Numbered from the stretch's first letter, positions 28,561 to 44,763 are shown. The stretch is DNA of 64,000 nt from Achromobacter sp. (GCF_032113835.1 NZ_DAMCTG010000009.1:3377-67376), one strand, 5' to 3'. Made by a program: numbers and translations. Notes: generated from the letters alone by a model not told the origin.

Positions 28561-29460
28561 ATGCTGACTTTCAAACAGATCGAAGCGCTTTATTGGACGG
28601 TCCGGCTGGGGACATTTTCTGCGTCGGCGCAGAAGCTGCACACGACGCAATCGGCCATCACCAAGCGCATCCAGGAACTGGAAGCCGACTTCGACATCGC
28701 CCTTTTTGACCGGTCGGGCCACCGGGCCGAGCTGACGGCCCGGGGGCATGAGATCTATGCCCTGGCCGAACAGATGCTGGGCCACCGCGACCGTCTGCTG
28801 GCGCGCTTGAAGGGGCAGCACACGCTGACGGGCACCTTCCGGTTCGGCATCACGGAGATCACCGCGATGACCTGGCTGCCCGCCCTGATCCGGCTGCTGC
28901 GCGCGCACTATCCGCGCATCACGCTGGAACCGCATATCGATCTGGGCGCCGACCTGCTCAAGCGTCTGCAGGCCGGGCAACTGGACATGGCATTTCTACA
29001 CGGCGAGTTCGCCGAACCGAATCTGCAGGTCGTCGCGCTGCAGCGCCTTGAATTTGCCTGGATGGGCAGCCCCGACCTGATCGACGCCAGCCACATCTAC
29101 ACCCCGGCCGACATTGCCAAGTTGCCGCTGCTGCGGCAGAGCCGCGAGTCCGGGCTGAACATGATCTACGACGGCTGGCTGCGCCCGCACACGGCGGCGA
29201 GCAACATCTTCACCATCAACAGCCTCATCGCGATGGCCGGATTGACCGCCGCCGGGTTTGGCGTGAGCTGCCTGCCACGCGATTATTTCGCGGACATGGT
29301 GAGCACGCGGCAACTCGTCATCGCCCGAACCAGCGTCGCGCCGCCGCAGTCGGTGTACAGCGCAATGTTCCGCAGGGACGCGGACGTGGCGTTTTGCGAG
29401 AGCGTGGCGGAATTGGCGGAGAGTTGCTGCGAATTTTCAACGGGGTGGCGTTTGCGTTGA
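28561..29460 (+). CDS. LysR-family transcriptional regulator
   Basis: N-terminal HTH (FKQIEALYWTVRLGTFSASAQKLHTTQSAITKRIQELE) plus a substrate-binding domain. It is divergent from the ABC/aminotransferase operon. Confidence 0.9.
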   Translation: MLTFKQIEALYWTVRLGTFSASAQKLHTTQSAITKRIQELEADFDIALFDRSGHRAELTARGHEIYALAEQMLGHRDRLLARLKGQHTLTGTFRFGITEITAMTWLPALIRLLRAHYPRITLEPHIDLGADLLKRLQAGQLDMAFLHGEFAEPNLQVVALQRLEFAWMGSPDLIDASHIYTPADIAKLPLLRQSRESGLNMIYDGWLRPHTAASNIFTINSLIAMAGLTAAGFGVSCLPRDYFADMVSTRQLVIARTSVAPPQSVYSAMFRRDADVAFCESVAELAESCCEFSTGWRLR

Positions 29461-29476
29461 CGCGCGAAACGAAGTT

Positions 29477-30080
29477 CAGAACATATTTCGCGGTCGCCCC
29501 GTCATCGCACAGGCAGCATCGTCCTGCATCAAACAATCGATCACCGCCCGCACTGCGGGAAGCCGCCCGTGTTTGTGCGGCGTCAGGATGGTCGTGGAGA
29601 CGCGGCCGGCAGTCCATCCTGGCAGCACCTGCACTAGCCGTCCCCGACGGCCTGCGCGGAAAACACTTTAGGCAGACAGACAATGTCAAGCCCCATTTCC
29701 GCCGCCGGGAATAACGACACGGATTCGTCGGCATAAAACACCGGTTTCGGCGCGGCCTGCGCGATGTTGGACGGCGCGGACACCAGTGTGATCGGCTCGT
29801 CACGCATGCGCCGCCGCACGAGATCGGAGTCAGTAAGCGCTGCGTAGTGCCTTCGGACCGCGACGTCGAAGCCCTCCCGAACCAGATCGACAAAGCGGTC
29901 GGTGACGTGCAACTGGATGCGCAGCTCCGGGAACTGCCGCGCCAGCGTGGGCAAGCGATCGGCAAGCTGGAACTGCGCGATCAGCACCGACGCCCGCCAT
30001 GTCGGTGCTTCGCATCCCAACGTCACACCGGCGTTGGGAATATTCCTCAGCGCGACGACGGGAATAACTCGCTGGATTAA
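29477..30080 (-). pseudogene. LysR-family regulator remnant: HTH domain missing and internal 1-nt frameshift
   Basis: Only the effector-binding domain is present (LARQFPELRIQLHVTDRFVDLVREGFDVAVR ...). The frame is broken at about 29634-29637. The typical LysR C-terminus (LVQVLPGWTAGRVSTTILTPHKHGRLPAVRAVIDCLM, my own translation) continues in a neighbouring frame down to the TGA at 29477. Upstream, the frame ends at a TAA in AT-rich DNA near 30080, with no HTH. Confidence 0.7.
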
Positions 30081-30213
30081 ATATTAAAGATATTGTCCTG
30101 CGCGTCCGTTATTAGCAAAAAAAGACCTTCAAGAAGCCGCCGCTAGCCGGACGCAGCCGGGAGAATCTGACGACAGAACGAATTAATAACTCAGGACAGG
30201 ATTTGTCCCGAGT

Positions 30214-30227
30214 GGAGACTAGTCTCC
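30214..30227. promoter_or_regulatory. Perfect 14-bp palindrome GGAGACTAGTCTCC upstream of the island's first gene (candidate operator)
   Basis: Read directly from the sequence. It lies about 170 nt upstream of ATG 30394 in the AT-rich leader. An adjacent short inverted repeat is GGACA-ggatt-TGTCC (30194-30208). Confidence 0.3.
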
Positions 30228-30393
30228 CTTGGCAGCTGTGATTCACGCACCCGATTCGCATCTCAAGGAGGCTGACATGTACTCTCAGACCGCTTCGCCT
30301 ACGAAACGTCGTAATTTCACAAACGTGTGGTATTGTTTCAATACTATTCAAATAGTAATGCTGACTCCCCTAGTAGTTTGATGACGAATCGCC

Positions 30394-31272
30394 ATGGACT
30401 TTGAGATTCCCTCTTGCCTGACTGATCAGCCCGCCCTCTCAGAAGCGTATCTGGCATATCAATCAAGTAGACAAACGTTGAACGAATCGGGCCTGAAAGT
30501 GGCAGCGTGCGGTGTCTACAACGCAGGAAAAAGTTCATTATTGAATACGTTGGTGGACCGTTTCGACGCCGAAACGGAGGCTTTCAGGACCGGGGACGTG
30601 CGAGTTACCACGGAAGTTTCCGAGCTGAAATTCAATCAGCTGACGTTCGTCGACATGCCCGGCGTCGACGGTTCCTCGGAAGATGATGAAACCGCCTGGC
30701 AAGGCATTCTTCGCAGCGATTACTTCCTGTATGTCCACCGCCTTCGCGCCGTCGAGTTTGAGCAATCCGAGCTTGATTTCCTTAAGCGTCTGAAAGATGA
30801 GGTGGATGACATCGATTCACGGCTGGTACTCGTTATCAGCCAGATCGACGACGTCAGCAGCGACGAAGATGTGATTCGCAACACCGCCACCATCCGCGAC
30901 ACGTTTATCAAGGCGGCCGGTTTCGAGCCTGAACAGACTTTTTCCGTGTCGGTAACTCGATACGTAAAAGGGATGCGTGAAGGCAAGCAGGGGCTGACCA
31001 CTCGCAGCGGGATCCCGCCGCTAAAGCAATGGATTGACGTAATCAGCAGTCCTCCCGCGCAGGTCCAGTGGGAGCGTCTCCGCACCGATCGCCTAAATAG
31101 TCAGAGAGAAGCCTTGGCGGCGCAAATTCTTGCGCTCGCCGAGCAAGTGGACAGCGACATCCATGACGCAATGGAGAAGCGCCAATCGCGCCTGCGTTCG
31201 TTGGAAGAGGATATGCGAGGTCTGCTTCAAACAATCAAGGGCGCGTTGGCGCGCATTGATTCCCTAGCCTGA
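30394..31272 (+). CDS. Small dynamin-like/HSR1-type P-loop GTPase with C-terminal coiled coil
   Basis: G1 GVYNAGKS (30511-30534), G3 DMPGVDG, G4-like VISQID. The C-terminal third is helical and heptad-like (REALAAQILALAEQVDSDIHDAMEKRQSRLRSLEEDMRGLL). Confidence 0.8.
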   Translation: MDFEIPSCLTDQPALSEAYLAYQSSRQTLNESGLKVAACGVYNAGKSSLLNTLVDRFDAETEAFRTGDVRVTTEVSELKFNQLTFVDMPGVDGSSEDDETAWQGILRSDYFLYVHRLRAVEFEQSELDFLKRLKDEVDDIDSRLVLVISQIDDVSSDEDVIRNTATIRDTFIKAAGFEPEQTFSVSVTRYVKGMREGKQGLTTRSGIPPLKQWIDVISSPPAQVQWERLRTDRLNSQREALAAQILALAEQVDSDIHDAMEKRQSRLRSLEEDMRGLLQTIKGALARIDSLA

Positions 31273-31328
31273 CAAGGCACCTGCTCAGCGCCTTCCTCTC
31301 CTCAGGATCTTCCCAAAAGGAAAGTTTT

Positions 31329-31871
31329 ATGTTGCCCTTGCTTTTTGCCGGAGGTCTCGTGGCAGGCCTCGGAAAACTGATTTACGACGCAGTAACTTCC
31401 GATAGCGATTCTTCGCCTAGCTCTCCTTCGGTTGACGAGCAGGCAAAGTCGGCCCAGTCGCAACGAAAAAAAGAACTGCGAACTGAAGCCAGTAGACGAC
31501 TGCTGGCCGATACCGAGACGGCGGTAACGTTCCTGCTTGAGAAGCACGCAGTTCTCCTGACGGGTCGCGCAAAAACACCTGCAGCGCAAGTAACAGACGA
31601 ACCCGCACGCACACTAAATCCTGCAGCGAGCTGGCCTATGCCCACGGGAGTGTCGGGCTCCACCACAGGTTCCTCGACTGACGAGGACGTCCTCTCCATG
31701 CGCAACTTGCGTGACTTGAGCGGAGCCCGGCCGAGCAAAAAGGGATTCGACGCGCTGAAACCCTTAACCGATGAGTTGACTTACACGCAGGAATACCTGC
31801 AAGAGCGTAAGACCATCGCGAAAATGCGCAAACAGCGCGACGCACTTAGAACCCTTGCCGAGGCGCTATGA
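31329..31871 (+). CDS. Small membrane-anchored protein (N-terminal TM helix, disordered linker, C-terminal helix)
   Basis: MLPLLFAGGLVAGLGKLIY is a TM segment. It is followed by a Ser/Pro/Thr-rich region and a basic helical tail. AAGGAAAG precedes the ATG. The stop overlaps the next start (ATGA at 31868-31871). Confidence 0.65.
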   Translation: MLPLLFAGGLVAGLGKLIYDAVTSDSDSSPSSPSVDEQAKSAQSQRKKELRTEASRRLLADTETAVTFLLEKHAVLLTGRAKTPAAQVTDEPARTLNPAASWPMPTGVSGSTTGSSTDEDVLSMRNLRDLSGARPSKKGFDALKPLTDELTYTQEYLQERKTIAKMRKQRDALRTLAEAL

Positions 31872-33748
31872 AAAACAACCCCATGACGCGCAGACCCGAC
31901 CTTGCTGCCGACGACGAAAAGCGCGCAATGACCCGCGATGAATTTCTGCAGGTGTTTCGAAACCTCGCGGGCCGGTTTGAGGAGAATCAACAGAAAGCCT
32001 CTCAGACCGAACACTCCTTCTTTTCCGGTTTGAACACCTGCCGCGACCTCGCAGGCATCAACCCGTTTGAGTCCAGCAGACTTGACGACGACCACCCATT
32101 GCGTCAGCACCTCCATGGCGCAGTTGATCGGATCAAGGACGTGTTTGTAGCGTGGGATGAGACCATCGACAAACTCGAGACACACGCGACCTTCAAAAAG
32201 CAGATTGAAGATTCGCTGTTGGTTTTCGTATATGGCAAGGTCAAGGCCGGCAAGTCTTCGCTCGGCAACTACATTGCCCGGGGATGCACCAAACCTGTAC
32301 CGATGGCGGCCGGTGAGGCTGGCGCGCCCGTGTTTTTTGTGCAGGAAGGCCGCGAACTCACGGAAAAGGTGAGCGCCGAATCCATTCGTCGAGCGGGTGC
32401 CTTTAAGGTTGGAGAAGGTGAGACGACCAGCGCAATTCAGGGCTTTCAGTTACCCGGACTAACCTGGGTTGATTCTCCTGGTCTGCATTCCAAGCATGCG
32501 GAAAATGGCGAATTAGCGCAGAAGTATGTGGACGCTGCTGACCTGATCCTCTACCTCACAAATTCCATGGCGCCTTGTAAGCGCAGCGATCTGGAAGAGC
32601 TGAAGACGTTGGGGAGCAAAGAGCACAATCTGGCGGTCTTGATCACTGGTAGCGACCAGTGGATTGAGGATGAAGACGAGAATGGCGACCCGCTCAAAGA
32701 GCTGGCAATGAAGACGCAGACCGTTCGCGAACAACAGATCCATTATGTCCGCGACTCATTGCGAAAGCAGCACTGCGATGTCCAAAGCAAGTCAACCGGA
32801 GTCATGGACAAGACCTTGCAGCGCGCAAAAGTGCATTCGGTTTCGGTCGTCTACGCCGAAGAGCACCCTGATAGCGTCGGCATGCAGTCCAGCGGCATGG
32901 GAGCCATGTTGTACGACGTAGCGATGCTTGCCCAGAGCGCAGGCGTACGCGACAAGCTGGTCCGCCCGCTCAAAAATCTACGTCATTTCTTGAATGTTAT
33001 GCGGACTGCGCATTTGCCAAAGATTCAGTCCGCCCTCAACGGACTGACTGCGTCCATCGCCACGACGAAGAGCAAGGCTGAAACCGATGCGCGTCAACGA
33101 ATCCAAGGGATTGCACTGCGCATCGCTCCGGCCATCGATGCTTTGATCGAACAGCACGCAAGCGCCAAAGACAGCCGGGCATTCAAGACCGCGCTGGCGC
33201 AGGCGTATTCACGCTGGTTGGGCGAGGCCCGGGATTCCATAGCGGATGCATATGCAAATTCCCTCGGCGAACGTCTGACGCGCGCGATGGATTCCGCTAT
33301 TGACCTACTTCCCGACTTCGAGGACGTCAAAAAATCAATCCCGCGTCGCTCGACCGTGAACGCAAAGCGAGGCGCCGCATTGGGCGGCGCGCTGTCCGCA
33401 CTGGCAGCGCTGGCCGTACCGGGTGGCGTACTGCTAGCTGCTGGAGCGGCGGTCTTATCCTCCGCCCTGGGCGGGTTCGCAGGCAAAAAGATTGGCGCCA
33501 CGTTGGATGACACCGAGATTGCCGAAATGGTCATTGGCAACAACGCGAATGAGGTGGGTGCAAAAGCTCGCGCGGTGTTAAGCGAAAAATTCAGACGCGA
33601 AAGCGAAACCACGCTCACCAACTTGCAGTTGAGTTGCTATTCCGAGTTGGAAGCGTGGCTTTCCGGCCTGAACCGGGAGGTGAATCAGGTGACCGCAAGA
33701 ACCGAAGCGTTGTTGTCCGAATTGGACGCGCAACTAACCAACGCCTGA
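31868..33748 (+). CDS. Bacterial dynamin-like protein (GTPase + helical stalk + hydrophobic paddle)
   Basis: G1 GKVKAGKS (32234-32257), G3 WVDSPGLHS, G4-like LITGSD. A long helical region follows. A Gly/Ala-rich hydrophobic hairpin GAALGGALSALAALAVPGGVLLAAGAAVLSSALGGFAG (about 33371-33481) is typical of BDLP membrane paddles. Confidence 0.85.
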   Translation: MKNNPMTRRPDLAADDEKRAMTRDEFLQVFRNLAGRFEENQQKASQTEHSFFSGLNTCRDLAGINPFESSRLDDDHPLRQHLHGAVDRIKDVFVAWDETIDKLETHATFKKQIEDSLLVFVYGKVKAGKSSLGNYIARGCTKPVPMAAGEAGAPVFFVQEGRELTEKVSAESIRRAGAFKVGEGETTSAIQGFQLPGLTWVDSPGLHSKHAENGELAQKYVDAADLILYLTNSMAPCKRSDLEELKTLGSKEHNLAVLITGSDQWIEDEDENGDPLKELAMKTQTVREQQIHYVRDSLRKQHCDVQSKSTGVMDKTLQRAKVHSVSVVYAEEHPDSVGMQSSGMGAMLYDVAMLAQSAGVRDKLVRPLKNLRHFLNVMRTAHLPKIQSALNGLTASIATTKSKAETDARQRIQGIALRIAPAIDALIEQHASAKDSRAFKTALAQAYSRWLGEARDSIADAYANSLGERLTRAMDSAIDLLPDFEDVKKSIPRRSTVNAKRGAALGGALSALAALAVPGGVLLAAGAAVLSSALGGFAGKKIGATLDDTEIAEMVIGNNANEVGAKARAVLSEKFRRESETTLTNLQLSCYSELEAWLSGLNREVNQVTARTEALLSELDAQLTNA

Positions 33749-33808
33749 TATTCAATCGGGCGACACCGTGACGTCGGCTGCCCTTAGTTATTCCAAGACA
33801 TTACCATT

Positions 33809-35458
33809 ATGAAGACCGAAAACCCGCTAGTTCGCTTGCTCGATGACTTCTCTGAGATCCGTCCCGTCCTGGACTCCGTTTTTGAGGGGGACGCCAACGC
33901 GTTGGCGCGAGTAGCGCAGACCGCAGAAAAGTTGTCCAAAGACGCAAGGGAGGGACAACTCCAAACGCTGGTGTTCGGTCATTACAACGCGGGCAAATCA
34001 ACGTTCATCAATGCGTTGATGGGCGAGGAAGTTGCGCCCACGGGAGACGTACCGTTAACCGCACGCATCAATCCTTACGACTGGCATGGCCATCTACTCT
34101 TTGACTCACCAGGCATCGATGCACCGATCGATCATGAAATGATCACGGACGATTTCCTGCAACATCGGTGCAACGCCATCATCTTCGTGATTTCGACAGG
34201 TGGAGCGGTCGAGGAAGCGTCAACGTGGGAACGCCTGTGTTCATTCGTCAAGGACAAGAAGGCGGTACTTATCGTCATCAACGACAAGTCGGGCCTGGAT
34301 CTCAACGGAACCGAATTCGTGCGGATCCGGACGACGGTCTATCAGAATATGCAGTTGGCGGCAGCTAAGTTGGGCATGGAAGACCCAGCCGAGCATATCA
34401 ATGTAATTCACGTCAAGGCACAGACCGCACTCAAGGCACGACTGGAGAACAAGCCGACGCTGTTGGCGCGAACAGGTATCCAGGACGCTGAGGATGTATT
34501 GCGGAGATTCTTCAGTACGGCCACGGAGAAGATGCTGCGCTCGGACAGCGAGCGGGCGCGCAAACTGGTCAACGAAGCCATCGAGCGACTGGCGAAGCAA
34601 TCCGGTGACAGCGGCAGTATCGCGCTGACCGAATGCCGCAACAGGGTCGAGCAGGAGCGTACGCGCCTCGAACTCGCGCTTGTTGATGCAGTGCGAAGAC
34701 TCGTCGCGCGTGAAGTGCAAGAGACCCAAAACGCTTTGGCCCGTTTCGAAATGAACGATGCCGAACAGGTGAAGCAACGCCTCATTGAACACTTGGAGCA
34801 CTCGCAGGCGCGGATCCGGCAAGGGATTGAAAGGCAACTGCAAATCGAGTTTGAGAGCACCGATATCGTGGTCCACGACGCGGCCAAGTTGCTGTCCCAG
34901 TTGGTCACCAAGGGCAGCATGGGGTTCGACGATGTGGAGATGCGTGCTTCCGGATTTTCATATGACGGCGAATCCAGCAAATCCGGTGAAGCATCGAGTT
35001 CGGCTTGGTTCGATGCTTTCAAGTCGATTAATACCGAAAAATGGACAGAGGCGGGCATCAAGGAACTGCTGAAACAAGGCAAGGGCTGGTTCCCCAGCCT
35101 GTTTAAGGGAATTGGCCCCAAGACCATGGGGAAATGGGCGAGCACGGCCGGTCGGGCGGTCGGCCCCCTCCTGGCGATCGGCCAGGGAGCCTGGGAGCTG
35201 TATCAAGCCAGCCAGGAGGAAGCAGAGCACCGCGAGCGGCACCGCAAGTTTGTCGAACAGGTGATGGCAAGTGTTCGCCAGTCCTTCAGCGACGCGGTCA
35301 CCGAATACGAAGTGAAGATCAACGAAATCTCTAAAGGCGCCCTGACTCCCATCCTGGAAGCGTTGGACCAACGAGCGATTGAACTGCAATCGCGGAACGA
35401 AGCCCAGCAAGCGATGCAGGAACGTTTGGCAACTTGGACGCGAAAGCTCAACTATTGA
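33809..35458 (+). CDS. Bacterial dynamin-like protein (GTPase + helical stalk)
   Basis: G1 GHYNAGKS (33977-34000), G3 FDSPGIDAP, G4-like VINDKSG. The C-terminal half is predicted to be long helices. The hydrophobic segment (GRAVGPLLAIGQGAW) is much weaker than in the preceding protein. Confidence 0.85.
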   Translation: MKTENPLVRLLDDFSEIRPVLDSVFEGDANALARVAQTAEKLSKDAREGQLQTLVFGHYNAGKSTFINALMGEEVAPTGDVPLTARINPYDWHGHLLFDSPGIDAPIDHEMITDDFLQHRCNAIIFVISTGGAVEEASTWERLCSFVKDKKAVLIVINDKSGLDLNGTEFVRIRTTVYQNMQLAAAKLGMEDPAEHINVIHVKAQTALKARLENKPTLLARTGIQDAEDVLRRFFSTATEKMLRSDSERARKLVNEAIERLAKQSGDSGSIALTECRNRVEQERTRLELALVDAVRRLVAREVQETQNALARFEMNDAEQVKQRLIEHLEHSQARIRQGIERQLQIEFESTDIVVHDAAKLLSQLVTKGSMGFDDVEMRASGFSYDGESSKSGEASSSAWFDAFKSINTEKWTEAGIKELLKQGKGWFPSLFKGIGPKTMGKWASTAGRAVGPLLAIGQGAWELYQASQEEAEHRERHRKFVEQVMASVRQSFSDAVTEYEVKINEISKGALTPILEALDQRAIELQSRNEAQQAMQERLATWTRKLNY

Positions 35459-35474
35459 TCGATAGCGCCATTCG

Positions 35475-35510
35475 CCCCGATCCCCCTATAGCAAGGCGCG
35501 GTCATCGGGG
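35475..35510 (+). terminator. Weak hairpin between the GTPase module and the nuclease/helicase module
   Basis: CCCCGAT (35475-35481) pairs with ATCGGGG (35504-35510) and is followed by TTTA. The loop is large (22 nt), so this is only a weak candidate. Confidence 0.25.
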
Positions 35511-35639
35511 TTTACGCAGACGGATTCGCGTCGACGTCCCACTTCGGCAAGCTGCCAGAAAGGGCGTCGGGCGGACACATTGTCAGCGCAGTGCCGGACG
35601 CCCGTGCGTGCCGGTGTGATGAATCCATGAACAGAGCAG

Positions 35640-36956
35640 ATGACTATGCAGTGGGGTTTGTTGGGACCGGCGGCGCTGTCCGGAGAAAGGCGGACGAGGA
35701 CCTTGGGCATCGGGCGCGCTGTCCGGCGCTTTAATGAACTGGCCGTGCCGGGTACGGGTGGTGTCTGGTTCGGCAAGCAGGTCTTCCTTGCAATCCTGGG
35801 AGTCCGCGTGGCCGAACTGGCTCGCGACGCAAGAATGCCCGTTGGCAATATCGAATGCGCCAATGCGATCGAGGCGTTGGCATGCTGGCTTGGCTACAAC
35901 GAGAGCAAATGGGCGCCGCACCCGCGCTTGCGCGGCATCAACACATTACCTCGTGAACACGCCCTGGATTTTCGTACGTTGCGCCGCCCGGGCTTTTACG
36001 TTTCACAACCCACGCGCATGGCGGTTGGGCAAAGTCTGATGCCTCTGGGGTTGGCGGAGGGGCCTCGCCGGCGCTTCAACGCCCTAGCAACCACCGAGGC
36101 CGGCAGAAACTTGATCGCTTTGGCATGTGGCGACGGCGGGCGGCACGACATCGTGACGCAACTGCTGAACTGGGTGCAGGGAAAATCTGTCAGCTGGCCA
36201 CCGCGTTTCGTGAAGCTGCTCTCTCCTTGCGTGCCGCTCACACTCGCCGCCCGGGGACTGCTCCACTCTCAGTTTATTCTGGGGTCAGATAAAGAAGACG
36301 GCACACACAAGGATCGACGGCGCGCTGCGTTGCGATGGGTTGACGACCTGCGCAGTCACCCCCCTTCAGGGCCGCTGGGCTGGGAGGATCGGCCTGCAGC
36401 CATCGTCGATGACGCGCATTGGAAGGATTTACAGGCAGGCGCGCAACTCATGGCTTGTCGCGCGCAAGCCATAGTCGTGCTCGATGAGCTTGAGCGCAAA
36501 CTCGCCCTGTCTCCCAAAGAAATGCTACGCGTCGAAGAAGCGGCAGGAATGCTAGGCGACGAGCTTGCCGATCTAAAGGTGGCCGCTGATCGTTATCTAT
36601 CGTTTTCGCATCCCGATGCGGACGCCATGGCTTTTGGTCGCGAATGCGCCCTGCCTTCTACTTCCGATCGGCTCGAGCATCTGTTGCGCCGAGACGATCG
36701 GGTACTGCGGCTTGTTGCGCGCGAAGTCAAACCTGGACCAGCATTCCGCCGTGCGATGCGCAACGAAATCGCATCAGATCCGGCGCTGTCCGCGGATCCT
36801 GAAGACGCCGGCGTATCCGACGGCATCATCGACTGGCCCGCGAACCTATCGTTCCGAGTTCGCAACCTTTATGTGCTTAACCGAGATTTGCTCGAAGAAC
36901 CGAACGCGATGCGTAACGAGACCACAAACCAGATCTTCGTGGACGCCGAACTATGA
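35640..36956 (+). CDS. Hypothetical protein (no recognisable motif), first gene of the nuclease/helicase module
   Basis: 438-aa ORF. The stop overlaps the next start (ATGA at 36953-36956). I could find no catalytic or nucleotide-binding motif by eye. Confidence 0.7.
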   Translation: MTMQWGLLGPAALSGERRTRTLGIGRAVRRFNELAVPGTGGVWFGKQVFLAILGVRVAELARDARMPVGNIECANAIEALACWLGYNESKWAPHPRLRGINTLPREHALDFRTLRRPGFYVSQPTRMAVGQSLMPLGLAEGPRRRFNALATTEAGRNLIALACGDGGRHDIVTQLLNWVQGKSVSWPPRFVKLLSPCVPLTLAARGLLHSQFILGSDKEDGTHKDRRRAALRWVDDLRSHPPSGPLGWEDRPAAIVDDAHWKDLQAGAQLMACRAQAIVVLDELERKLALSPKEMLRVEEAAGMLGDELADLKVAADRYLSFSHPDADAMAFGRECALPSTSDRLEHLLRRDDRVLRLVAREVKPGPAFRRAMRNEIASDPALSADPEDAGVSDGIIDWPANLSFRVRNLYVLNRDLLEEPNAMRNETTNQIFVDAEL

Positions 36957-38944
36957 AGGCGCCCTCCTTGTTGCACTTGTTCGACGCGCCGGACGACTAC
37001 AACGGCCTGTTTGGCTGGGTATGCGGCTATTCTGGCGACGATCTGTTTCTCAACGAGGCGGCTGAGCGATTTACCCGTCGCACGCATGCGCAGCGCGCGA
37101 AGGCGGGCGAGATCTCATTGGGATTGATCCTGGATCCGCAGCATGAACCTCTATCGCTGCTCGATGTGCCAGGCGTCGCCCACCTTCCCTTGCGCGACGC
37201 GAATCTCCAGCCGTTCAAGCTGATGCACGCCAAGGTCGCCCTACTGGGCTTCCGCAACGCAGACGCCGATCAATGGCGGCTGCGCTTGATCGTCTCGACC
37301 GGCAACTGGACCCGACAGACCGTTGAGGAAAGCCTGGACCTTGCGTGGACGATCGAAGTGTCTTCTGCGGACCTGAACGCGGAGGCGCGTGACCTGTCAT
37401 TGCGATGCGCCGACGTAAACGCTGCCTCTGAATTTTTGAACTGGCTCGCCTCGCATTTCGATACCCGCATCCTTGAAGCCATGACGGAAAACCCGTGCGC
37501 GGCGGATCGTATCAGCCGGTTCAACGGGTGGGTCAGCCAATGCGCATCTCGGTCGCAGGGGCATACCCCCCGGTTTTTCGACAATCGCTCGCACGGCCTT
37601 CTTGAACAGCTTCCCGCCTTGATCGAGAAGCACGCCGGCAAGGTTCGCCGCAACTATCTGGCCATGGCATCGGGCTTCTTCGAGGATTCGCCTCAAGCTG
37701 GAGCGGACAGCCCGGCCGAGCAGGTTCCCACTGTGCTGGCCAGTATTGAAGATGCATTACGCGCACAAGACATGCTGACACGCAGCGCTCTGGTCGAGAT
37801 CTACGTCAACCCGGATGGTTGCCAAGCGGTAGCCCGCTGTCTGGATGCGATGACGAAGCGCCAGTGGAGGGTCGTGGAGCCGGGACAACCCGAACAAGTG
37901 TTTCGCGCGGACGTCCGACGCACGCTGCACGCGAAATTTCTCCTGGGCGGCAACGATGTCGGCGATGCCTGCAGTAGCGGCTGGCTCTATCTGGGATCGG
38001 GGAATCTTACCCGTCCCGGCTTCGTCGAGCGTGCGCGTCGGGCGCGCGGCAACCTCGAAGCGGGGGTTGTTTTTTCCTTGCCAAGAACGCTGTGGTTGCC
38101 GTCCAAGGATCCCTCGGTACCGGCAATGACCGTATTATTGCCAATCCAGTCTGATGGCGTTCCCATAACGGTCACTGACCATCTCAAGGCAGGCGACCCC
38201 ATGCCGGAGCTCAACGGATCTTTTGTTGCCGGCCCGATAGCCTATTTGCAATGGATCCCAACGGAAGACGCAGGGCTATTACGCGCACCTGGCCGCAGCA
38301 ACTTGGACTTTGACGTGCTGGGTCCGGATGGGCAAACCTGCCCCAGGCTCGGACTGGACTGGCTGTGGCCAGGGGGGGCGCCTCGCCAGGCGAGGTTGCG
38401 TTGGGGAGTGCACGGGAATCACCAGCAGCAAGTGCCGGTGGTCGACCAATATGGCCGGATCGCAGGCGCGGAACTACCCGGACTGGCACTGCAGGATCTC
38501 GCAGCCCAATTGCTCAATTTTCCTGCGATTGACGATGGCGATGACGACAATGGCGACGGCGACGCCGATCAAGATCCGTCAAACCAGCGCCACCCCGACG
38601 CGCGCAACTCGGCCAGTCCTCCCCCCACGGCAGCGATACGGACGATGATGACGCAATTAGAACTCATCGCTCAGAAGCAGGTTCAAGTGGCAGTCGCCGA
38701 CTGGTCGGCATGGTGCCACCGACTTGAGCAGATCCTGTGCCAGGCGCGGGAGAGCACCGCGCTGGCCGATTTTCGTCGTCTGAAGATCAATCCGCTCAGT
38801 TGCCTGCTGCAAGCGGCCTTCCGCCCCGTCTACGCGAACGATGCCCGCACACCAAGCGGTCGGCGCTACGAAGAAGCATTGGAACGCGTCGCGGAATCGT
38901 GGGGCGTGCGGAGTGGATACCTGGCCTTTGGAGAGGATGAATAA
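36953..38944 (+). CDS. Phospholipase D-family (double HKD) protein, nuclease-like
   Basis: HKD motif 1: LMHAKVALLGF ... LIVSTGNWT (37226-37312). HKD motif 2: LHAKFLLGG ... LYLGSGNLT (37928-38008). A C-terminal region of roughly 300 aa is unassigned and includes an acidic D/G tract. The stop overlaps the next start (TAATG at 38942-38946). Confidence 0.85.
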   Translation: MKAPSLLHLFDAPDDYNGLFGWVCGYSGDDLFLNEAAERFTRRTHAQRAKAGEISLGLILDPQHEPLSLLDVPGVAHLPLRDANLQPFKLMHAKVALLGFRNADADQWRLRLIVSTGNWTRQTVEESLDLAWTIEVSSADLNAEARDLSLRCADVNAASEFLNWLASHFDTRILEAMTENPCAADRISRFNGWVSQCASRSQGHTPRFFDNRSHGLLEQLPALIEKHAGKVRRNYLAMASGFFEDSPQAGADSPAEQVPTVLASIEDALRAQDMLTRSALVEIYVNPDGCQAVARCLDAMTKRQWRVVEPGQPEQVFRADVRRTLHAKFLLGGNDVGDACSSGWLYLGSGNLTRPGFVERARRARGNLEAGVVFSLPRTLWLPSKDPSVPAMTVLLPIQSDGVPITVTDHLKAGDPMPELNGSFVAGPIAYLQWIPTEDAGLLRAPGRSNLDFDVLGPDGQTCPRLGLDWLWPGGAPRQARLRWGVHGNHQQQVPVVDQYGRIAGAELPGLALQDLAAQLLNFPAIDDGDDDNGDGDADQDPSNQRHPDARNSASPPPTAAIRTMMTQLELIAQKQVQVAVADWSAWCHRLEQILCQARESTALADFRRLKINPLSCLLQAAFRPVYANDARTPSGRRYEEALERVAESWGVRSGYLAFGEDE

Positions 38945-41535
38945 TGGATTGGAACGCAGTCGCGTCGACACTGATCGAGTCTGCCGAGAAAGCCGAGGGA
39001 TCCGCAGGTGGCGCATGGTCATTGAATGATGGCCAACGCCGCAGCGTGATGGCGCTAGCCCGTCGCATAACGAAAAATGGCGTGGTTATTGCCGACGAGG
39101 TCGGCATGGGAAAAACCCGCATCGCCGTGACCCTGGCCCGCGCCGTCATCGAACAAGGTGGGCGGGTTGCTGTGCTCGTACCCCCTGGCCTGGGATTTCA
39201 ATGGCAGCAGGAAATGCACGAGGGCGGCGTGGAATGTCCACCCTTGCTAAGAAGCCTGGAACAGTATTTCAAGCCCTGGGACATCAGCCAGGGCGTCTCG
39301 CCGTCATGGTCAACGCAGGATGTCGTACTACTGTCACATCAAATCGCAAACTGGCGTATTGGCGAAGGTACCCGCGCCCCATACTGGTCCTTGCTGCCGC
39401 TGTTGTACGCCACATGGCGCAAGGTCTGCGATGGCCGCTATCCCAGACATTTCCACGCAGCGCCCGAACTATCCGATCCGCGGATTCGTGCTGCGGCCGA
39501 AGACATCGTGGCTTGGGCAGAGCGAGAAGGAGGTATTCCCGTCGATTTCCTGAATAGGCTCGTGACAGAGGCGCCGTGGCCAGCGGCGATGAACTCTGGC
39601 GAGTACCGCTCGGGTACCGATCTTCGTATAGCGCTGGAACGAGCCGTGGGTATCGGCTTAGGATTTTTCGATCTCATCATCATCGACGAGGCGCACAAGA
39701 GCCGGGGCGACGCGACGGGGCTATCGCGAGTACTGAATAATGTCGCTCTGACTCCCGCCGACGGTCGCAAGCTCGCCATGACGGCCACGCCCGTTGAACT
39801 TGATGCCGAGCAATGGCAGGACGTGCTGGACCGCATTGCCATTGAGACAGCAGACGGCCGGTTCTTGCCCGATCATGAGCAAACGTCGCTTGCTATAAGC
39901 AGCTATGAAAAGGCAGTCGACGCCGTCAAAGCGCAGCCGAACGACGCCGAAAAGAGGGCGAACTTTCGGGTCGCGGCGCGCGAGTTCGAAAAGACGCTGG
40001 CTCCGTATCTGGTTCGGCGCGACAAGCGCGAATCCCAATCTGTGCAGACATTCGCGCTTCACTCGGGCTTGTCACCTCATGCGTATCGTCGAGAACGTCA
40101 GCTCATCATTGATCCAACGACGCTTTCACCCGCTTGGCAGCAAGCGATATGCGCGGCGGAAGCGCTATCCGTCGCCGCTTCGCAAGGAACCTTACCAGCA
40201 GCGCAACGGTTACGGCTGACGGTGGGCAGCGGCCACGGCATCGCCAAAGTCATTGATCAGCTTCAGCAGGATGACATTGAAGATTCCGAGCAAATGGCGG
40301 CTGACCGTTCGGCCGAGAATGTGACGAATTCCGAGTCGTCGAGATCCCAGCGCGTGGATTGGTGGCTCAGCGTGTTGCGTCAGACCTTGACGAACAAGAA
40401 CGCACTTCTCGACCACCCCGCCATACAAATCGCGGTTCAAGAAATTGAGAATGCCGATGCCAGGGGTGAAAAGGTTCTGGTTTTTGGCCGCTACACCGCT
40501 CCCATGAAAATGCTGGTCGACTTGTTGAATGCTCGTCAGATGCTCAGGGCCTTGCGGGACAACCGCCCGTGGCCTCAAAGCGGCGTGCGTGAGAGCGAAC
40601 ACGACGCGGTGAAAGCGGCGCAGCGTCAGTTGAAAATTCTGTCGGATGAGTCGATCGACAGTATCAATGCCCAATTACAGATTCAGTACGAGGGCTTAGA
40701 GGCCCGTCGCCAGACGGCCCGCGACCACCTGTTCAATAACCTTCGCGCCGGGCTTGAAGCGCATCCCGACAACAGCGCCGCAAAGCTCCTGTTTGGCGCA
40801 TTCGTGAGCAATCCCGTTGGACAGGCTGCCGTTACGCGGGCGGTGATGGAGTTACTTGCCCGCGATGAAGCGAGTCCGCAGGAATGGGCCGACGCCTTCG
40901 TGAACCTCGTCGACGCGGCCATGGACCGCGAGGACATTGACGAGCGCGGCGAAGCCGGTCTGAATGAGGCGGGAGCGGCCGCTTTGTGGCCGAAACTGGC
41001 GGAACGCTTTGACGACGAATATCGCAACCCGCAGGGTGGATTTGCGCGATTGATGTACGGCGAAACAAAGCATGTGACCCGCCGATTGCTGCAGCTGGCT
41101 TTCAATCGTCAGGATAGCTTTCCCAGGGTGCTGGTGGCGCAATCTGTTGTTGGACGCGAAGGGCTGAATCTGCATAAGGCGTGCCGCACAGTTCTGCTGC
41201 TGCACCCTGAATGGAATCCAGCGGTGGTTGAACAACAGATTGGGCGGGTGGACCGGCTGGGCAGCCGATGGGAACAGTTGCTTGACGCGGCGATCGCAAA
41301 GGGCGTTCGAGGCACAGATCTACCGCGCATCGAAATCCTGCCCATCGTTTTCCAGGGCACATATGACGAGCATAACTGGATGGTTCTGAAATCGCGATGG
41401 GATGCGTTGAGGGCGCAACTTCACGGCACCGTGCTTCATGTACCTGATGTTAATGAGGATCCCCTGCTGCGTGAGCTCGCAAATGAAATCAATGGCGCGG
41501 CACCAAATTTTTCCCCTAAACCGCCCCCTATTTGA
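38944..41535 (+). CDS. SNF2-family helicase/translocase
   Basis: Motif I ADEVGMGKT (39094-39117), motif II IIIDEAHKSRG (DEAH at 39685-39696). C-terminal RecA lobe: KVLVFGRY, VLVAQSVVGREGLNLH, motif VI EQQIGRVDRLG. Confidence 0.9.
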   Translation: MDWNAVASTLIESAEKAEGSAGGAWSLNDGQRRSVMALARRITKNGVVIADEVGMGKTRIAVTLARAVIEQGGRVAVLVPPGLGFQWQQEMHEGGVECPPLLRSLEQYFKPWDISQGVSPSWSTQDVVLLSHQIANWRIGEGTRAPYWSLLPLLYATWRKVCDGRYPRHFHAAPELSDPRIRAAAEDIVAWAEREGGIPVDFLNRLVTEAPWPAAMNSGEYRSGTDLRIALERAVGIGLGFFDLIIIDEAHKSRGDATGLSRVLNNVALTPADGRKLAMTATPVELDAEQWQDVLDRIAIETADGRFLPDHEQTSLAISSYEKAVDAVKAQPNDAEKRANFRVAAREFEKTLAPYLVRRDKRESQSVQTFALHSGLSPHAYRRERQLIIDPTTLSPAWQQAICAAEALSVAASQGTLPAAQRLRLTVGSGHGIAKVIDQLQQDDIEDSEQMAADRSAENVTNSESSRSQRVDWWLSVLRQTLTNKNALLDHPAIQIAVQEIENADARGEKVLVFGRYTAPMKMLVDLLNARQMLRALRDNRPWPQSGVRESEHDAVKAAQRQLKILSDESIDSINAQLQIQYEGLEARRQTARDHLFNNLRAGLEAHPDNSAAKLLFGAFVSNPVGQAAVTRAVMELLARDEASPQEWADAFVNLVDAAMDREDIDERGEAGLNEAGAAALWPKLAERFDDEYRNPQGGFARLMYGETKHVTRRLLQLAFNRQDSFPRVLVAQSVVGREGLNLHKACRTVLLLHPEWNPAVVEQQIGRVDRLGSRWEQLLDAAIAKGVRGTDLPRIEILPIVFQGTYDEHNWMVLKSRWDALRAQLHGTVLHVPDVNEDPLLRELANEINGAAPNFSPKPPPI

Positions 41536-41609
41536 TACGCGAGGCGCCGCGCAAAGCCTGATTCCACCCCTCGCGCGGCAAAATTCTTTTGCGCAAACTG
41601 GAACATACG

Positions 41610-42578
41610 ATGACGCGTCTCGAGTTGGTCGACCATCTTGCAATACAGTTTGCCCACGCGCAGAAATCAGAACGCTGGGCGATGTACCGTCTGATTGCGC
41701 CAGTGGTTGACCATGCCAACGCCAGCATGGGATTACGCGATTATTTTGAGTTCAATCAGACCAGCCTGCACGGCACGTCGCAATCAGTCGATATCGCGCT
41801 GCTTGACAACTCGGGCTTGCCCCGAGTCATGATTGAGGCCAAGCGCCTTGATCGCGCCATCGCCGCAGAACAGATTGCGAAGTATCTGCCCGCAGATACG
41901 CGCGGCATCGTCACAAACGGGCTGCATTGGGTCTTGTGTCTGAACGGAAGAGACAAGCTGGTCACATTGTGCGATGCCAAGAGCCGTGAAATGCGCCCCC
42001 ATGCGTTGGATGAAATCGTCGCATTCATTCGCGGCGAGTCGCTATTGCCTCAGGAATGGCGAAGCCAACAGGATGGCTACGTCGCATCGTTCATTAGACC
42101 GGAACGGCTAACCAAAACGGCATCTGCGCAGCGGGCCGTCAACGCCGTGACAGTTGTGCGCGAGATGCGCGGCTTTCGCGCTGAACTGGACCGGCTTCCC
42201 GGAATCTCCCCGCTGGACCGAGTCCTGCTCACAGCGATGGCGCAAGCGTTTGAGGAACTGGGGCAGATATCTTCTACGCTGCGAATCGAATTTCGCAAGA
42301 CGAGGGTCAGCATTTTCGGCGAGTGCCTGGACGGCAGGCGCATTGCGCGTCTTGAGTTAGGCAAGCGCCAGCCAGACGTCCTGATCCTTACGGAGCTTGT
42401 TCAGGGTGACGAGATTCTCTGCGGCCTGGCACAACCCGCGCCGCATGACAAAGGGCCGCACATGCGAAGGTACCGGTTGAGTCATGACATACAAGCTGCT
42501 TCGTTCGGTCGTGCGATGGCGGCATTGCTGAACGTTTGTGACAAACCTAATAAAAATCGCGCTGTGATGTCGGCATAG
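41610..42578 (+). CDS. PD-(D/E)xK nuclease-fold protein resembling the N-terminal domain of type I restriction HsdR
   Basis: SVDIALLDNSGLPRVMIEAKRL (D at 41790, ExK at 41835-41843), followed by AAEQIAKYL ... GIVTNGLHWVL. This matches the D...ExK...Q..Y...TNG..W layout of HsdR_N-type domains. ATG 41610 is preferred over the TTG at 41589. Confidence 0.65.
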   Translation: MTRLELVDHLAIQFAHAQKSERWAMYRLIAPVVDHANASMGLRDYFEFNQTSLHGTSQSVDIALLDNSGLPRVMIEAKRLDRAIAAEQIAKYLPADTRGIVTNGLHWVLCLNGRDKLVTLCDAKSREMRPHALDEIVAFIRGESLLPQEWRSQQDGYVASFIRPERLTKTASAQRAVNAVTVVREMRGFRAELDRLPGISPLDRVLLTAMAQAFEELGQISSTLRIEFRKTRVSIFGECLDGRRIARLELGKRQPDVLILTELVQGDEILCGLAQPAPHDKGPHMRRYRLSHDIQAASFGRAMAALLNVCDKPNKNRAVMSA

Positions 42579-42634: not shown

Positions 42635-44119
42635 CTACTTCCTGGCTACCCGTTCGACCTTCAAGTCCACATTCCGCCCGTTAATCAGTGCAGTGGCTTC
42701 CTTGATCTGATAATCGGCCTCGAACTCGCAGAACTCCTTGGTCTTCATCGGCACCAGGGTGCTCGAACTGAACGAATCCCATGCCCGGCCATCCAGGCCT
42801 TCGTTCATCGTATTCATGCCAAACGGACTGAAAGCCAACGTGCGCTGCGTCGTCGCGCCCTGGTCGTTCTTCAATTCGACCGTGACGCGCAGATTGGCGA
42901 TTTCACTGAGTTTGTCGGTGGTGACGACAAAATGCGGTTCGCAGGCCAAGGCGCCGTCGTTGCCGCCGTGGTACGTCGACTTATGCAGCAGGCGCAGCGT
43001 GGGCGCCGCTTTGCCAGCCTGTTTGCGCTGGTCCAGATCGCTTTTGCAATGGGCCAGGAATTTGGCGTCGTCCTGCGCATCCGGCTGATGGTTGCGGCGC
43101 TCCTGACGATATTGCAGGGCCTTCTTGCAATCGGTCTTCACCGACTGGCCGTTGTAGTAGATCCAGCTCAGGAATCTTGGTGCACGGGCTGAACCCTGCT
43201 CAATCGCCTCTTCAAACAGAGTACGCGCGCGGGCGTAATCGACCGGAACGATTTCGCCCAGGTAGTAGATTTCGCCCAGATTGACCAAGGCATCCCGGTC
43301 GCTTTGCGCCGCCGCGCGCTCGAACCATGACACGGCGACTGCCGGGTCGCGATCCACGCCCCACTTGCCTTCTACGTAGGCAAGGCCTAGAAGATTCTGC
43401 GAGTGCGGCTCGCCGGCCTCCGCCGCGCGTTGCCACCACTTGAAGGCTTCGGCGTCCTTTTTCTCGACCTGCGAATAGCCGAAGTTGTAGAGGCTACCGA
43501 CCTGAAAGAGCATCCCGGGTTCTTTATCCCGCTCGGCCCAAACCCGCGCCAAGCGCAGCGTGTCCAGTTTGGTGAAGCCGATGCGCGCCATCATCGTGCG
43601 GGCGTCGGAGGAGGCAGACCCGACATGACGTCGCAGGTATTCGATGACCGGCAGCCGCATTTCGACGTCGGTTTCGGCTTTGGCCTTGCCCTCGTAGACG
43701 ATGTGGCGCTGGCGCTCCATCTCCTTGACGTCGTCGAGGTTGTCGAAGTCGTCCTTGGCGATGAGGCCGATGTAGCGTTCAGCGATGCTGGCGTCCTTGT
43801 CGATGCCGATGCCGTACTCGAAGAAATAGGCGGCGTTGGCGCACCCGTATTGGCCGCCCTGATGGCACGCCAGCGCGTAGTTGGCGATGGCCAGTTTGAC
43901 GTCGCGGGCGACGCCCACGCCGTGTTCGTACATGAAACCTAGCGCCATGAGCGCGTCAAGCTCCTTGTCTTTGGCGAGGTCTTGAAGCGCTTTCAACGCT
44001 GAGGCGTCTTGCTGGACGGCGCGGTCATAGAGGCGTTCGGCCAGATGGTCTTGCTGGGCGGCGGCCGAGAAGGTGGATCCCACCAGCACTGCGGCGGCGA
44101 ACTTCAAATATTTGGACAT
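42635..44119 (-). CDS. Secreted Sel1-like (SLR/TPR) repeat protein with unrelated C-terminal domain
   Basis: Signal peptide MSKYLKFAAAVLVGSTFSAAA. Multiple Sel1 repeats are present (LGFMYEHGVGVARDVKLAIANY, AAYFFEYGIGIDKDASIAERY, LGLAYVEGKWGVDRDPAVAVSWF, LGEIYYLGEIVPVDYARARTLF). The last roughly 120 aa are non-repeat. Confidence 0.8.
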   Translation of the reverse strand: MSKYLKFAAAVLVGSTFSAAAQQDHLAERLYDRAVQQDASALKALQDLAKDKELDALMALGFMYEHGVGVARDVKLAIANYALACHQGGQYGCANAAYFFEYGIGIDKDASIAERYIGLIAKDDFDNLDDVKEMERQRHIVYEGKAKAETDVEMRLPVIEYLRRHVGSASSDARTMMARIGFTKLDTLRLARVWAERDKEPGMLFQVGSLYNFGYSQVEKKDAEAFKWWQRAAEAGEPHSQNLLGLAYVEGKWGVDRDPAVAVSWFERAAAQSDRDALVNLGEIYYLGEIVPVDYARARTLFEEAIEQGSARAPRFLSWIYYNGQSVKTDCKKALQYRQERRNHQPDAQDDAKFLAHCKSDLDQRKQAGKAAPTLRLLHKSTYHGGNDGALACEPHFVVTTDKLSEIANLRVTVELKNDQGATTQRTLAFSPFGMNTMNEGLDGRAWDSFSSSTLVPMKTKEFCEFEADYQIKEATALINGRNVDLKVERVARK

Positions 44120-44319
44120 CGACTGCTTTCCTGTGAACAACGGCGGTCGCTGTGGCGCAAACGACCGGGGCGATTGTATCTGCGCCATCTGTCTTGCCGG
44201 TTTCGCGCAGATCAAGGAGACCGCATTGGTCCTGGATTCAGGCTGGCCGCGCGGCGGCGCACCATTTGGTGCGATAGACTCCCGGCTTGTTTGGGATTGA
44301 ATCAGCAGGAGTTCACGCA

Positions 44320-44763
44320 ATGAGCAGCATTTTTCCAGACGATCTGTGGGCGGTGGGCGAAGCCCGCATCAACGGTCTGCCGGTCGTCATTCGCTTTCGC
44401 ACCGGGCTGCCGCCCGAGTCCGATCGCCAGGTCAACGACAACCTGATCATCATCACCTGGGCGTATCAGGGCATCGAGACCGGCATGCCGAACGACGAAG
44501 ACAAGCTGCGCACCAATGCGTTTGAAGAAGCCATCGAACAGGGTTTCGAGAATTCGGACGCCGGCGTGCAGGTGGCATGCCTGACCGGTAATCATCAGAA
44601 AGAGTGGCGCTACTTCACGCCGAATGTCGAAGCCTTCCTGGATGCGTTCAACACGTGCCTGGCGGGACATCCGGTCTATCCGATTGAACTGCGCATGTTC
44701 AAGGACCCTGACTGGAATGCCTTGTCGGGATTGCAGCCCGAAGGATCTGAGCAGCTGCATTGA
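44320..44763 (+). CDS. DUF695-like protein
   Basis: 147 aa. The start WAVGEARINGLPVVIRFRTGLP ... LIIITWAY resembles DUF695 family proteins. CAGGAG precedes ATG 44320. Confidence 0.6.
   Translation: MSSIFPDDLWAVGEARINGLPVVIRFRTGLPPESDRQVNDNLIIITWAYQGIETGMPNDEDKLRTNAFEEAIEQGFENSDAGVQVACLTGNHQKEWRYFTPNVEAFLDAFNTCLAGHPVYPIELRMFKDPDWNALSGLQPEGSEQLH

Follow-up and report, generated by a model that had tools for sequence, protein, structure and literature searches.

The stretch of DNA analysed here, 64,000 nucleotides from Achromobacter sp. (GCF_032113835.1, NZ_DAMCTG010000009.1:3377-67376) and henceforth called the window, carries four co-oriented open reading frames (ORFs) on the plus strand at positions 30394-35458, which we designate g1, g2, g3 and g4. 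Three of them encode dynamin-like GTPases and the remaining one, g2, encodes a small protein with a predicted membrane anchor; that they constitute a four-gene dynamin operon, far beyond chance expectation, is confirmed. A preliminary description of this DNA had delimited the same ORFs, together with P-loop and G3 motifs in three of the products and an overlap of the second and third genes through the tetranucleotide ATGA, and all of these coordinates and motifs were recovered. The genes and the features within them are as follows:

30394-31272, plus strand: g1, 292 amino acids (aa), short LeoA-type GTPase
30511-30534, plus strand: g1 P-loop GVYNAGKS, aa 40-47
30652-30663, plus strand: g1 G3 motif DMPG
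aa 149-152 of g1: G4-like motif SQID
31051-31266, plus strand: g1 C-terminal helix of 72 residues, aa 220-291, modelled by AlphaFold2 (AF2) with a predicted local distance difference test score (pLDDT) of 89-95
31329-31871, plus strand: g2, 180 aa, small protein predicted to be membrane-anchored
31329-31397, plus strand: g2 N-terminal hydrophobic segment MLPLLFAGGLVAGLGKLIYDAVT, aa 1-23, Kyte-Doolittle peak 1.65 (19-residue window)
31868-33748, plus strand: g3, 626 aa, LeoBC-type bacterial dynamin-like protein (BDLP)
32234-32257, plus strand: g3 P-loop GKVKAGKS, aa 123-130
32471-32482, plus strand: g3 G3 motif DSPG
33368-33487, plus strand: g3 hydrophobic hairpin rich in Gly and Ala, aa 501-540, peak 2.18; PGG at the turn, basic residues to either side
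33809-35458, plus strand: g4, 549 aa, LeoA-type dynamin-like protein
33977-34000, plus strand: g4 P-loop GHYNAGKS, aa 57-64
34103-34114, plus strand: g4 G3 motif DSPG
35081-35167, plus strand: g4 tip motif K-x-W-x-P-x-LFKGIGP-x-T, aa 425-453

The genes are closely packed, with spacers of 56 bp between g1 and g2 and 60 bp between g3 and g4 and an overlap of 4 bp between g2 and g3. Comparison with a 95%-identical Achromobacter relative gave ratios of non-synonymous to synonymous substitution rates (dN/dS) of 0.34, 0.28, 0.14 and 0.15 for g1 to g4 respectively, and given these values each of the four is a real gene under purifying selection. A scan for terminator-like sites on the plus strand between g1 and g4 found none, performing no better than on shuffled sequence.

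The preliminary description had called for a Dynamin_N search, and this Pfam model matched all three GTPases above its gathering score, with e-values of 1.3e-10 for g1, 9e-12 for g3 and 1.3e-15 for g4; the MMR_HSR1 model likewise matches each of them above the gathering score. It had also suggested kinship with the LeoABC proteins of enterotoxigenic Escherichia coli (ETEC) and with the anti-phage Eleos system, and this is borne out by the LeoA and LeoBC hidden Markov models (HMMs) of PADLOC, which match g1, g3 and g4 with e-values of 1e-14 to 1e-25. LeoBC recognizes g3 (4e-19), while LeoA recognizes g4 over nearly its full length (9.6e-26; model positions 41-547 of 559) and g1 over the N-terminal half only (1.2e-21; model positions 44-320 of 559). 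Assignment to Eleos here means a match to these PADLOC-DB models rather than the outcome of the system rules or thresholds of PADLOC or DefenseFinder. The P-loop, the switch-I threonine, the DxPG motif and the aspartate of G4 are invariant in all three GTPase families. The NCBIfam model for DynA (NF052648, cut-off 1600 bits) was matched at 30.2 bits at best, by g4, and its cut-off was not reached. Searches of the PDB with single protein sequences yielded weak matches to the G domain, and none for g3, and family profiles were needed.

The AF2 model of g3 (pLDDT 79, from an alignment of 57 sequences) comprises two N-terminal helices, a G domain at residues 117-355, stalk helices, the hairpin and a C-terminal helix at residues 560-625. 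Its five long stalk helices provide the stalk that is a feature of the dynamin superfamily, and the hairpin sits between stalk helices with the low confidence expected of a membrane segment. An insertion of about 70 residues separates G1 from G3, and the residues G123-K126, G128-S131, T187, D202, P204, G205 and D263 are invariant in the 57 family members. The g3 family profile retrieves the BDLP structure 2j68 from the PDB at 1.8e-8, and a Foldseek search with the model returns MFN1/2, IniA, BDLP, Cj-DLP1/2 and LeoA. As modelled, g3 is a mitofusin/BDLP-type protein. For g4, the full-length LeoA HMM match and the profile matches to BDLP (1e-12), Cj-DLP1 (2e-12) and LeoA (4aur, 1e-5, C-terminal region) support the presence of a stalk. 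Residues G57, Y59-S64, T84, D99, P101 and G102 are invariant in 22 g4 orthologues, as are K425, P429, L431, K433, G434, G436, T439 and P453 of the tip motif, which is a candidate loop for peripheral membrane or partner binding.

HMM coverage and profile matches, along with the AF2 model and Foldseek matches of g3, agree with the proposal in the preliminary description that both g3 and g4 represent bacterial dynamin-like proteins of full length. Its further proposal, that of these two the 626-aa protein alone has a convincing hydrophobic paddle, is supported too: the hairpin of g3 is clear, g4 has no hydrophobic segment (Kyte-Doolittle, 19-residue window) and in place of a paddle displays only the conserved amphipathic tip motif, and g1 has neither paddle nor hydrophobic segment by the same measure. 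In a two-gene relative from Acetobacter, the stretch equivalent to the g4 tip counts as hydrophobic (Kyte-Doolittle peak 1.87).

The short GTPase g1 is modelled (pLDDT 87, 26-sequence alignment) as an N-terminal helix at residues 13-29, a G domain at residues 34-217 and a single helix at residues 220-291. There is thus one helix on either side of the G domain and no stalk, and we take g1 to be a dynamin-type head lacking a stalk given this combination of a G domain with lone helices. No variation occurs among 26 family members at G40, G45, K46, S47, S48, T72, D87, P89, G90 and D152. Foldseek matches to the g1 model include Cj-DLP1 from Campylobacter, IniA, mini-MFN1, Irga6 and LeoA, with e-values of about 1e-8 to 1e-7, and GIMAP2 and Toc34 are also among them; the comparison with BDLP and LeoA structures proposed earlier therefore returns LeoA for both g1 and g3, and BDLP for g3. 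The best direct PDB sequence match of g1 is Irga6 (1e-5), within the operon it is most closely related to the G domain of g4, a paralogue with 26% identity across 190 aa, and distant g1 orthologues give weak matches to the Pfam AIG1 model.

The N-terminal transmembrane (TM) helix that had been proposed for the 180-aa g2 product corresponds to its hydrophobic residues 1-23. After this predicted helix comes a linker rich in Asp and Ser, then a second predicted helix that is highly charged, a variable middle region and, at the C-terminus, a further predicted helix; this architecture is kept in 22 orthologues. The N-terminus follows the pattern M(P)LP, with M, L and P at positions 1-3 invariant among the orthologues, and all of them have the hydrophobic run followed by DD and a run of serines. 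The g2 family matched no model in Pfam, PADLOC or NCBIfam, and a phmmer search of 1.84 billion representatives recovered just 13 relatives, none fused to a GTPase and all of 143-187 aa bar one weak 700-aa match. At the sequence level, g2 is without detectable relatives outside the four-gene cassette.

The order g1-g2-g3-g4 is held in all of the more than 40 related loci examined, down to about 30% identity, and four-gene loci occur in Achromobacter, Pseudomonas, Pectobacterium, Azonexus, Neomegalonema and on a Klebsiella plasmid. The close family has this order in 28/28 loci, the g2 slot being occupied by an ORF of 177-206 aa with the same N-terminal motif. At 90% identity the close g1 family forms 32 clusters, with sizes of 221-295 aa among the clusters listed, and it is present in at least 19 of 185,579 species genomes, a count from a pattern-limited scan that is a lower bound. 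Its hosts are three Achromobacter (one 95% identical), about ten Pseudomonas, Castellaniella, Rivihabitans, Paucimonas, Neomegalonema and two Azonexus. The g3 family is larger, with at least 587 clusters. Distant g3 homologues (29-40% identity) on non-plasmid contigs displayed the four-gene arrangement in 5/5 sampled cases, namely a P. protegens-type protein, Pectobacterium versatile and three metagenomic contigs, in the form of a short GTPase, a small protein with a hydrophobic N-terminus, a protein of about 600 aa and one of about 545 aa. In these distant relatives, too, g2 abuts or overlaps g3, and one metagenomic contig (L043, 4939-5947) has two small genes in the g2 slot, of 162 aa (with weak DUF1232 similarity) and 163 aa.

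By tblastn, g3-type genes were found on 41 plasmids, 24 of them conjugative, mostly from Klebsiella, Raoultella and Citrobacter. On a K. pneumoniae IncFIA plasmid the four genes are labelled in RefSeq as GTPase, hypothetical protein, dynamin family protein and GTPase, and the PADLOC models match the 30%-identical Klebsiella plasmid cassette in the pattern LeoA-half, none, LeoBC and LeoA. An Acetobacter vaccinii plasmid carries g3 and g4 only, lacking g1 and g2. With the Klebsiella plasmid cassette as query, megablast found nothing in 5,426 complete E. coli genomes, and no match to the cassette was found among INPHARED phages or IMG/VR viral contigs.

The cassette and the genes next to it form a low-GC3 island whose composition is foreign to the remainder of the window. 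From about 30 to 44 kb the GC content is 54-60%, down from 63-70%, and the GC content at third codon positions (GC3) is 0.59-0.69 in g1-g4 and the next four genes versus 0.82-0.85 in the flanking metabolic genes. On the left, a 5'-truncated LysR substrate-binding fragment without the N-terminal helix-turn-helix (29634-30026, minus strand) abuts an AT-rich spacer of about 370 bp (30020-30393) ahead of g1, and fragment and spacer together look like the left insertion scar of an island. No att-like direct repeats, integrase or tRNA were found at the island edges, the tRNA search having covered the whole window.

Defence genes and mobile elements recur around the relatives of the cassette, a neighbourhood that we describe qualitatively rather than by a genome-wide statistic. 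The combinations seen at individual loci include Zorya type I with a type I restriction-modification (R-M) system; type I R-M with a nuclease; a pPIWI_RE module; integrases with BrxR and an ADP-ribosylglycohydrolase; a WYL regulator with UvrD/PDDEXK proteins; IS66 with MqsA and an SNF2-NOV_C protein; an integrase with IS21; an S-4TM/TrlF system with a GNAT toxin-antitoxin pair and IS5 (on the Klebsiella plasmid); HsdR with Abi_2; and WYL with NERD-UvrD. The pooled flanks of 15 species, 109 ORFs in total, contain 9 WYL regulators and give matches to Mokosh, Juk, NERD-UvrD, type I methyltransferase, ZorA, GmrSD, caspase-like and integrase families. WYL regulators lie near 9/15 species-level loci, which suggests that expression is WYL-controlled in many hosts. 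Given the variable contexts and the absence from phages, the cassette is an accessory cargo of islands and plasmids and not a core locus. This patchy, island- and plasmid-borne distribution accords with the defence or mobile setting envisaged in the preliminary description and disposes of the conserved core locus that it had named as the alternative.

The named system closest to this locus is Eleos, or 'Dynamins', which was described as a two-gene operon of LeoBC and LeoA from Bacillus vietnamensis (Millman et al. 2022, 10.1101/2022.05.11.491447). Both P-loops are required in the two-gene Bacillus system, and Eleos lies beside defence systems in 60% of cases (10.1101/2022.05.11.491447). The present locus shares with it the adjacency of a LeoBC-type and then a LeoA-type GTPase, intact P-loops, residence in defence islands and the PADLOC matches, but differs in the strictly conserved third short GTPase and small membrane-anchored protein upstream, and in the distance of its proteins from the characterised ones. 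Instead of two genes, four are present in every close-family locus and in all sampled non-plasmid distant contigs; the layout, as had been surmised, is more elaborate than that of two-gene Eleos, and the four genes are kept together across loci. Within the searchable literature, a four-gene Eleos or dynamin system was not described.

Other systems resemble the cassette in part. In ETEC H10407, the P-loop and switch 1 reside in LeoC (206 aa), which ends in a TM segment, and the portion from the DxxG motif onward resides in LeoB (572 aa; PMC4159319). ETEC LeoABC (Michie et al. 2014, PDB 4AUR) is, like our locus, a dynamin operon of several genes that sits on a horizontally acquired island and combines a small upstream membrane-anchored product with a soluble LeoA-type partner; unlike the LeoC/LeoB split, which falls within the G domain, g3 is uncut here, the G domain of g1 is complete, and g2 has no GTPase motif and bears its anchor at the N-terminus. 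Campylobacter DLP1/DLP2 (5OWV), Nostoc BDLP (2J68) and B. subtilis DynA share with the cassette a fold class of G domain, helical stalk and, where g3 is concerned, membrane paddle, as well as operon pairing, and they rank among the best structural and profile matches. Bacterial dynamin-like proteins usually act as heterotypic pairs on membranes (PMC6104087). Heterotypic membrane assembly is likely to be common to the cassette and the DLP1/DLP2-type pairs. Those pairs consist of two units, fused into one protein in DynA and on separate genes here, and none is described with a truncated third GTPase and a separate anchor. In size (about 290 aa) and in the joining of a G domain to C-terminal helical structure, g1 is reminiscent of GIMAP/AIG1, IRG/Irga6 and Toc34, although the likeness is limited to the G domain and the anchor lies on a separate polypeptide.

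We consider it probable, at roughly 0.6, that the locus was acquired horizontally and represents a variant of the Eleos anti-phage system with four components. Under this interpretation g3 and g4 would form a canonical dynamin pair, g3 embedded in the inner membrane via its hairpin and g4 soluble or peripheral with its tip loop, and g1 and g2 would be two further obligate genes ahead of the pair. At the membrane the four proteins may come together as one machine bearing three GTPase heads, to which g2, as a second anchor or adaptor, and the g3 hairpin would supply membrane attachment. g1 might dock by its long helix, by G-domain dimerisation with g3 or g4, or by both, and would thereby control assembly-stimulated GTP hydrolysis. 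With infection as the presumed trigger, the membrane would be remodelled, tethered or sealed, and phage entry blocked or lysis delayed. This proposal of membrane remodelling draws on the behaviour of DynA, whose role in phage defence requires membrane binding (PMC12998192), and on the P-loop dependence of the Bacillus system. More tentatively, and with the odds somewhat against it, the cassette may represent a distinct and widespread 'type II Eleos', in which the g2 adaptor and g1 would gate LeoBC/LeoA remodelling as a sensing or regulatory arm.

The relationship of g1 and g2 to the pair admits other readings. The preliminary description regarded g1 and g2 as a dynamin split into a GTPase and a membrane-anchor part, by which g1 would furnish the N-terminal helix, G domain and descending stalk helix and g2 the membrane segment and ascending, GED-like helices of a third dynamin-like protein cut at the paddle, making the operon one of three complete dynamin-like units. 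The constant g1-then-g2 order with close spacing, the combined length of 472 aa, the lone long helix at the end of g1 followed by the hydrophobic segment at the start of g2, as expected of a paddle cut, and the fact that Acinetobacter and Diaphorobacter have g1 homologues as long as 419-430 aa (hhalign probability 99.7%, g1 residues 32-284) all point this way. Against it, hhalign found no similarity of the g2 family to the g4 family (probability 3.8%) or to the part by which the long g1 homologue from Acinetobacter is extended at its C-terminus (0.1%), an extension that itself has no hydrophobic segment; no g1-g2 fusion occurs among the 32 g1 clusters, of which those listed are all too short to contain one, or the 13 g2 representatives; the g2 family has no match in the three model collections searched; and the ETEC cut lies inside the G domain, whereas g1 has the complete G1-G4 set. 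We therefore abandon the literal split as unlikely, and it survives only as a topological analogy. Still less credible, to the point of being highly improbable, is the view that g1 and g2 are an independent two-gene system lying beside a standard Eleos formed by g3 and g4: unrelated systems are tightly packed in defence islands and g3 and g4 stand alone on the Acetobacter vaccinii plasmid, but every g1 homologue examined precedes g2, g3 and g4 and is never seen without g3-g4, g2 and g3 overlap, and the flanks vary on both sides while the four genes stay together.

Another alternative concerns function, with the cassette being a membrane-maintenance or vesiculation module that travels as mobile cargo, acting in repair in the manner of DynA and IniA or in vesicle and toxin release in the manner of LeoABC, rather than in immunity. 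LeoABC knock-outs halve vesicle release in ETEC (PMC4159319). DynA and IniA act in membrane repair. Two plasmids, Acinetobacter johnsonii pIC001A (L039, 3499-6368) and one from Diaphorobacter (L041, 3496-6344), carry between catA/benE and catM a two-gene dynamin pair consisting of a g1-type GTPase of 419-430 aa without a TM segment and a hairpin-less g3-type protein of 519-537 aa. Set against this are the recurrence of the four-gene form beside unrelated validated defence systems and WYL/BrxR regulators in many independent contexts, its matches to the Eleos HMMs and its patchy distribution, and we judge the maintenance function improbable, to about the same degree as the split.

Several observations nevertheless weigh against an anti-phage variant of Eleos. 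The catechol/benzoate clusters that house the related dynamin pairs are a non-defence-looking context, and the four-gene family has no known phage phenotype. The sole tested Eleos is the two-gene Bacillus operon, which was active on jumbo phages only (10.1101/2022.05.11.491447), and in a 2025 paper a "dynamins" system of two ORFs, called by DefenseFinder on a Pseudomonas island, failed to protect against the phages used (PMC12595487). With the NCBIfam LeoA/HP0731 model (NF041922, cut-off 325 bits), g3 scores 27.6 and g1 16.7 bits and g4 has no match; being so far under the cut-off, the three GTPases are distant from ETEC LeoA. Finally, the N-terminal flank of the g2 segment has no positive charge and its C-terminal flank is acidic and Ser-rich, so that the bulk of g2 could face the periplasm, in which case it could act as an envelope sensor touching g3 only within the membrane.

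Around the cassette, some further features were recorded in the window:

30316-30345, plus strand: sigma-70-like promoter candidate about 50 bp 5' of g1, within the AT-rich 370-bp spacer
35640-42578, plus strand: four low-GC3 genes directly 3' of g4

The promoter candidate scores 9/12, and since such sites are no more frequent here than in shuffled sequence it is proposed from its position only. A small ORF with a strong Shine-Dalgarno sequence at about 30278, 5' of g1, was rejected, as the 95%-identical relative does not share it, and no RNA element was matched by Rfam in 29400-36000. The genes downstream of g4 encode a 438-aa protein that matched no family, a 663-aa protein with weak similarity to PLD and to PADLOC ZacB (8.5e-10), an 863-aa SNF2/ResIII helicase (PDC-M27C 2e-21, DrmD 4e-17, ZacC 1e-10) and a 329-aa HSDR_N-like protein. 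They probably form a separate Azaca/DISARM-like candidate defence system, and it is only in the closest relatives (L001, L010) that this cluster travels with the cassette. At the right-hand end of the low-GC region lie a 561-aa Sel1-repeat protein (42635-44320, minus strand, GC3 0.76) and a 158-aa ORF (44287-44763, plus strand), with an FAD/BBE oxidase (44990-46384) beyond them.

Additional genes accompany the cassette in relatives. Achromobacter-type relatives (53-67% identity) have, 5' of g1, a 242-aa protein, a 341-aa WYL+WCX regulator, a hydrophobic mini-ORF of 45-47 aa and a CxxC...CxxC zinc-ribbon ORF, and 3' of g4 a 543-aa UvrD_C_2 protein; the upstream and downstream extras are absent from the window. 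In the distant clade, the gene for a small CxxCxxCC (PF03692, YkgJ-like) zinc/iron-binding protein, a possible fifth component, lies at the g4 end or overlaps it, and this gene is not present in the window or in close relatives. Several Pseudomonas loci (L019, 15026-16162; L020, 15165-16301; L022, L026 and L028) have directly 3' of the cassette a GTPase of about 375 aa with MMR_HSR1 and DUF697 regions and the P-loop GKTGVGKST, L037 has an extra 295-aa AIG1-like GTPase, and L043 another large dynamin gene nearby. The positions of the first two of these additions are:

L002/L003, 7308-9535; L029, 7523-9583; also L011/L012: upstream WYL-bearing stretch
L009, 14870-15172; L031, 14954-15199; L042, 9493-9678; also most Pseudomonas-type loci: YkgJ-like gene at the g4 end

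The four-gene form is widespread and present in the databases under generic names, its composition of three GTPases and an anchor having apparently gone unrecognised. Eleos is treated as a two-gene system in the literature and in annotation tools, and a four-component form changes what has to be cloned. As the cassette is common on conjugative plasmids of Klebsiella, Raoultella and Citrobacter and in islands of Pseudomonas and Pectobacterium, it may be of relevance to phage therapy and plasmid-borne immunity. It would also be a further example of how dynamin-type defence in bacteria parallels the eukaryotic immune GTPases such as Mx, IRG and GIMAP. If the proposed type II Eleos is real, it would be a heterotrimeric-GTPase machine without a described counterpart among bacterial or eukaryotic dynamins. 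In the four-component form, g1 and g2 are natural handles on the recruitment and switching of dynamin-like proteins at bacterial membranes, offering a lead into the mechanism of Eleos.

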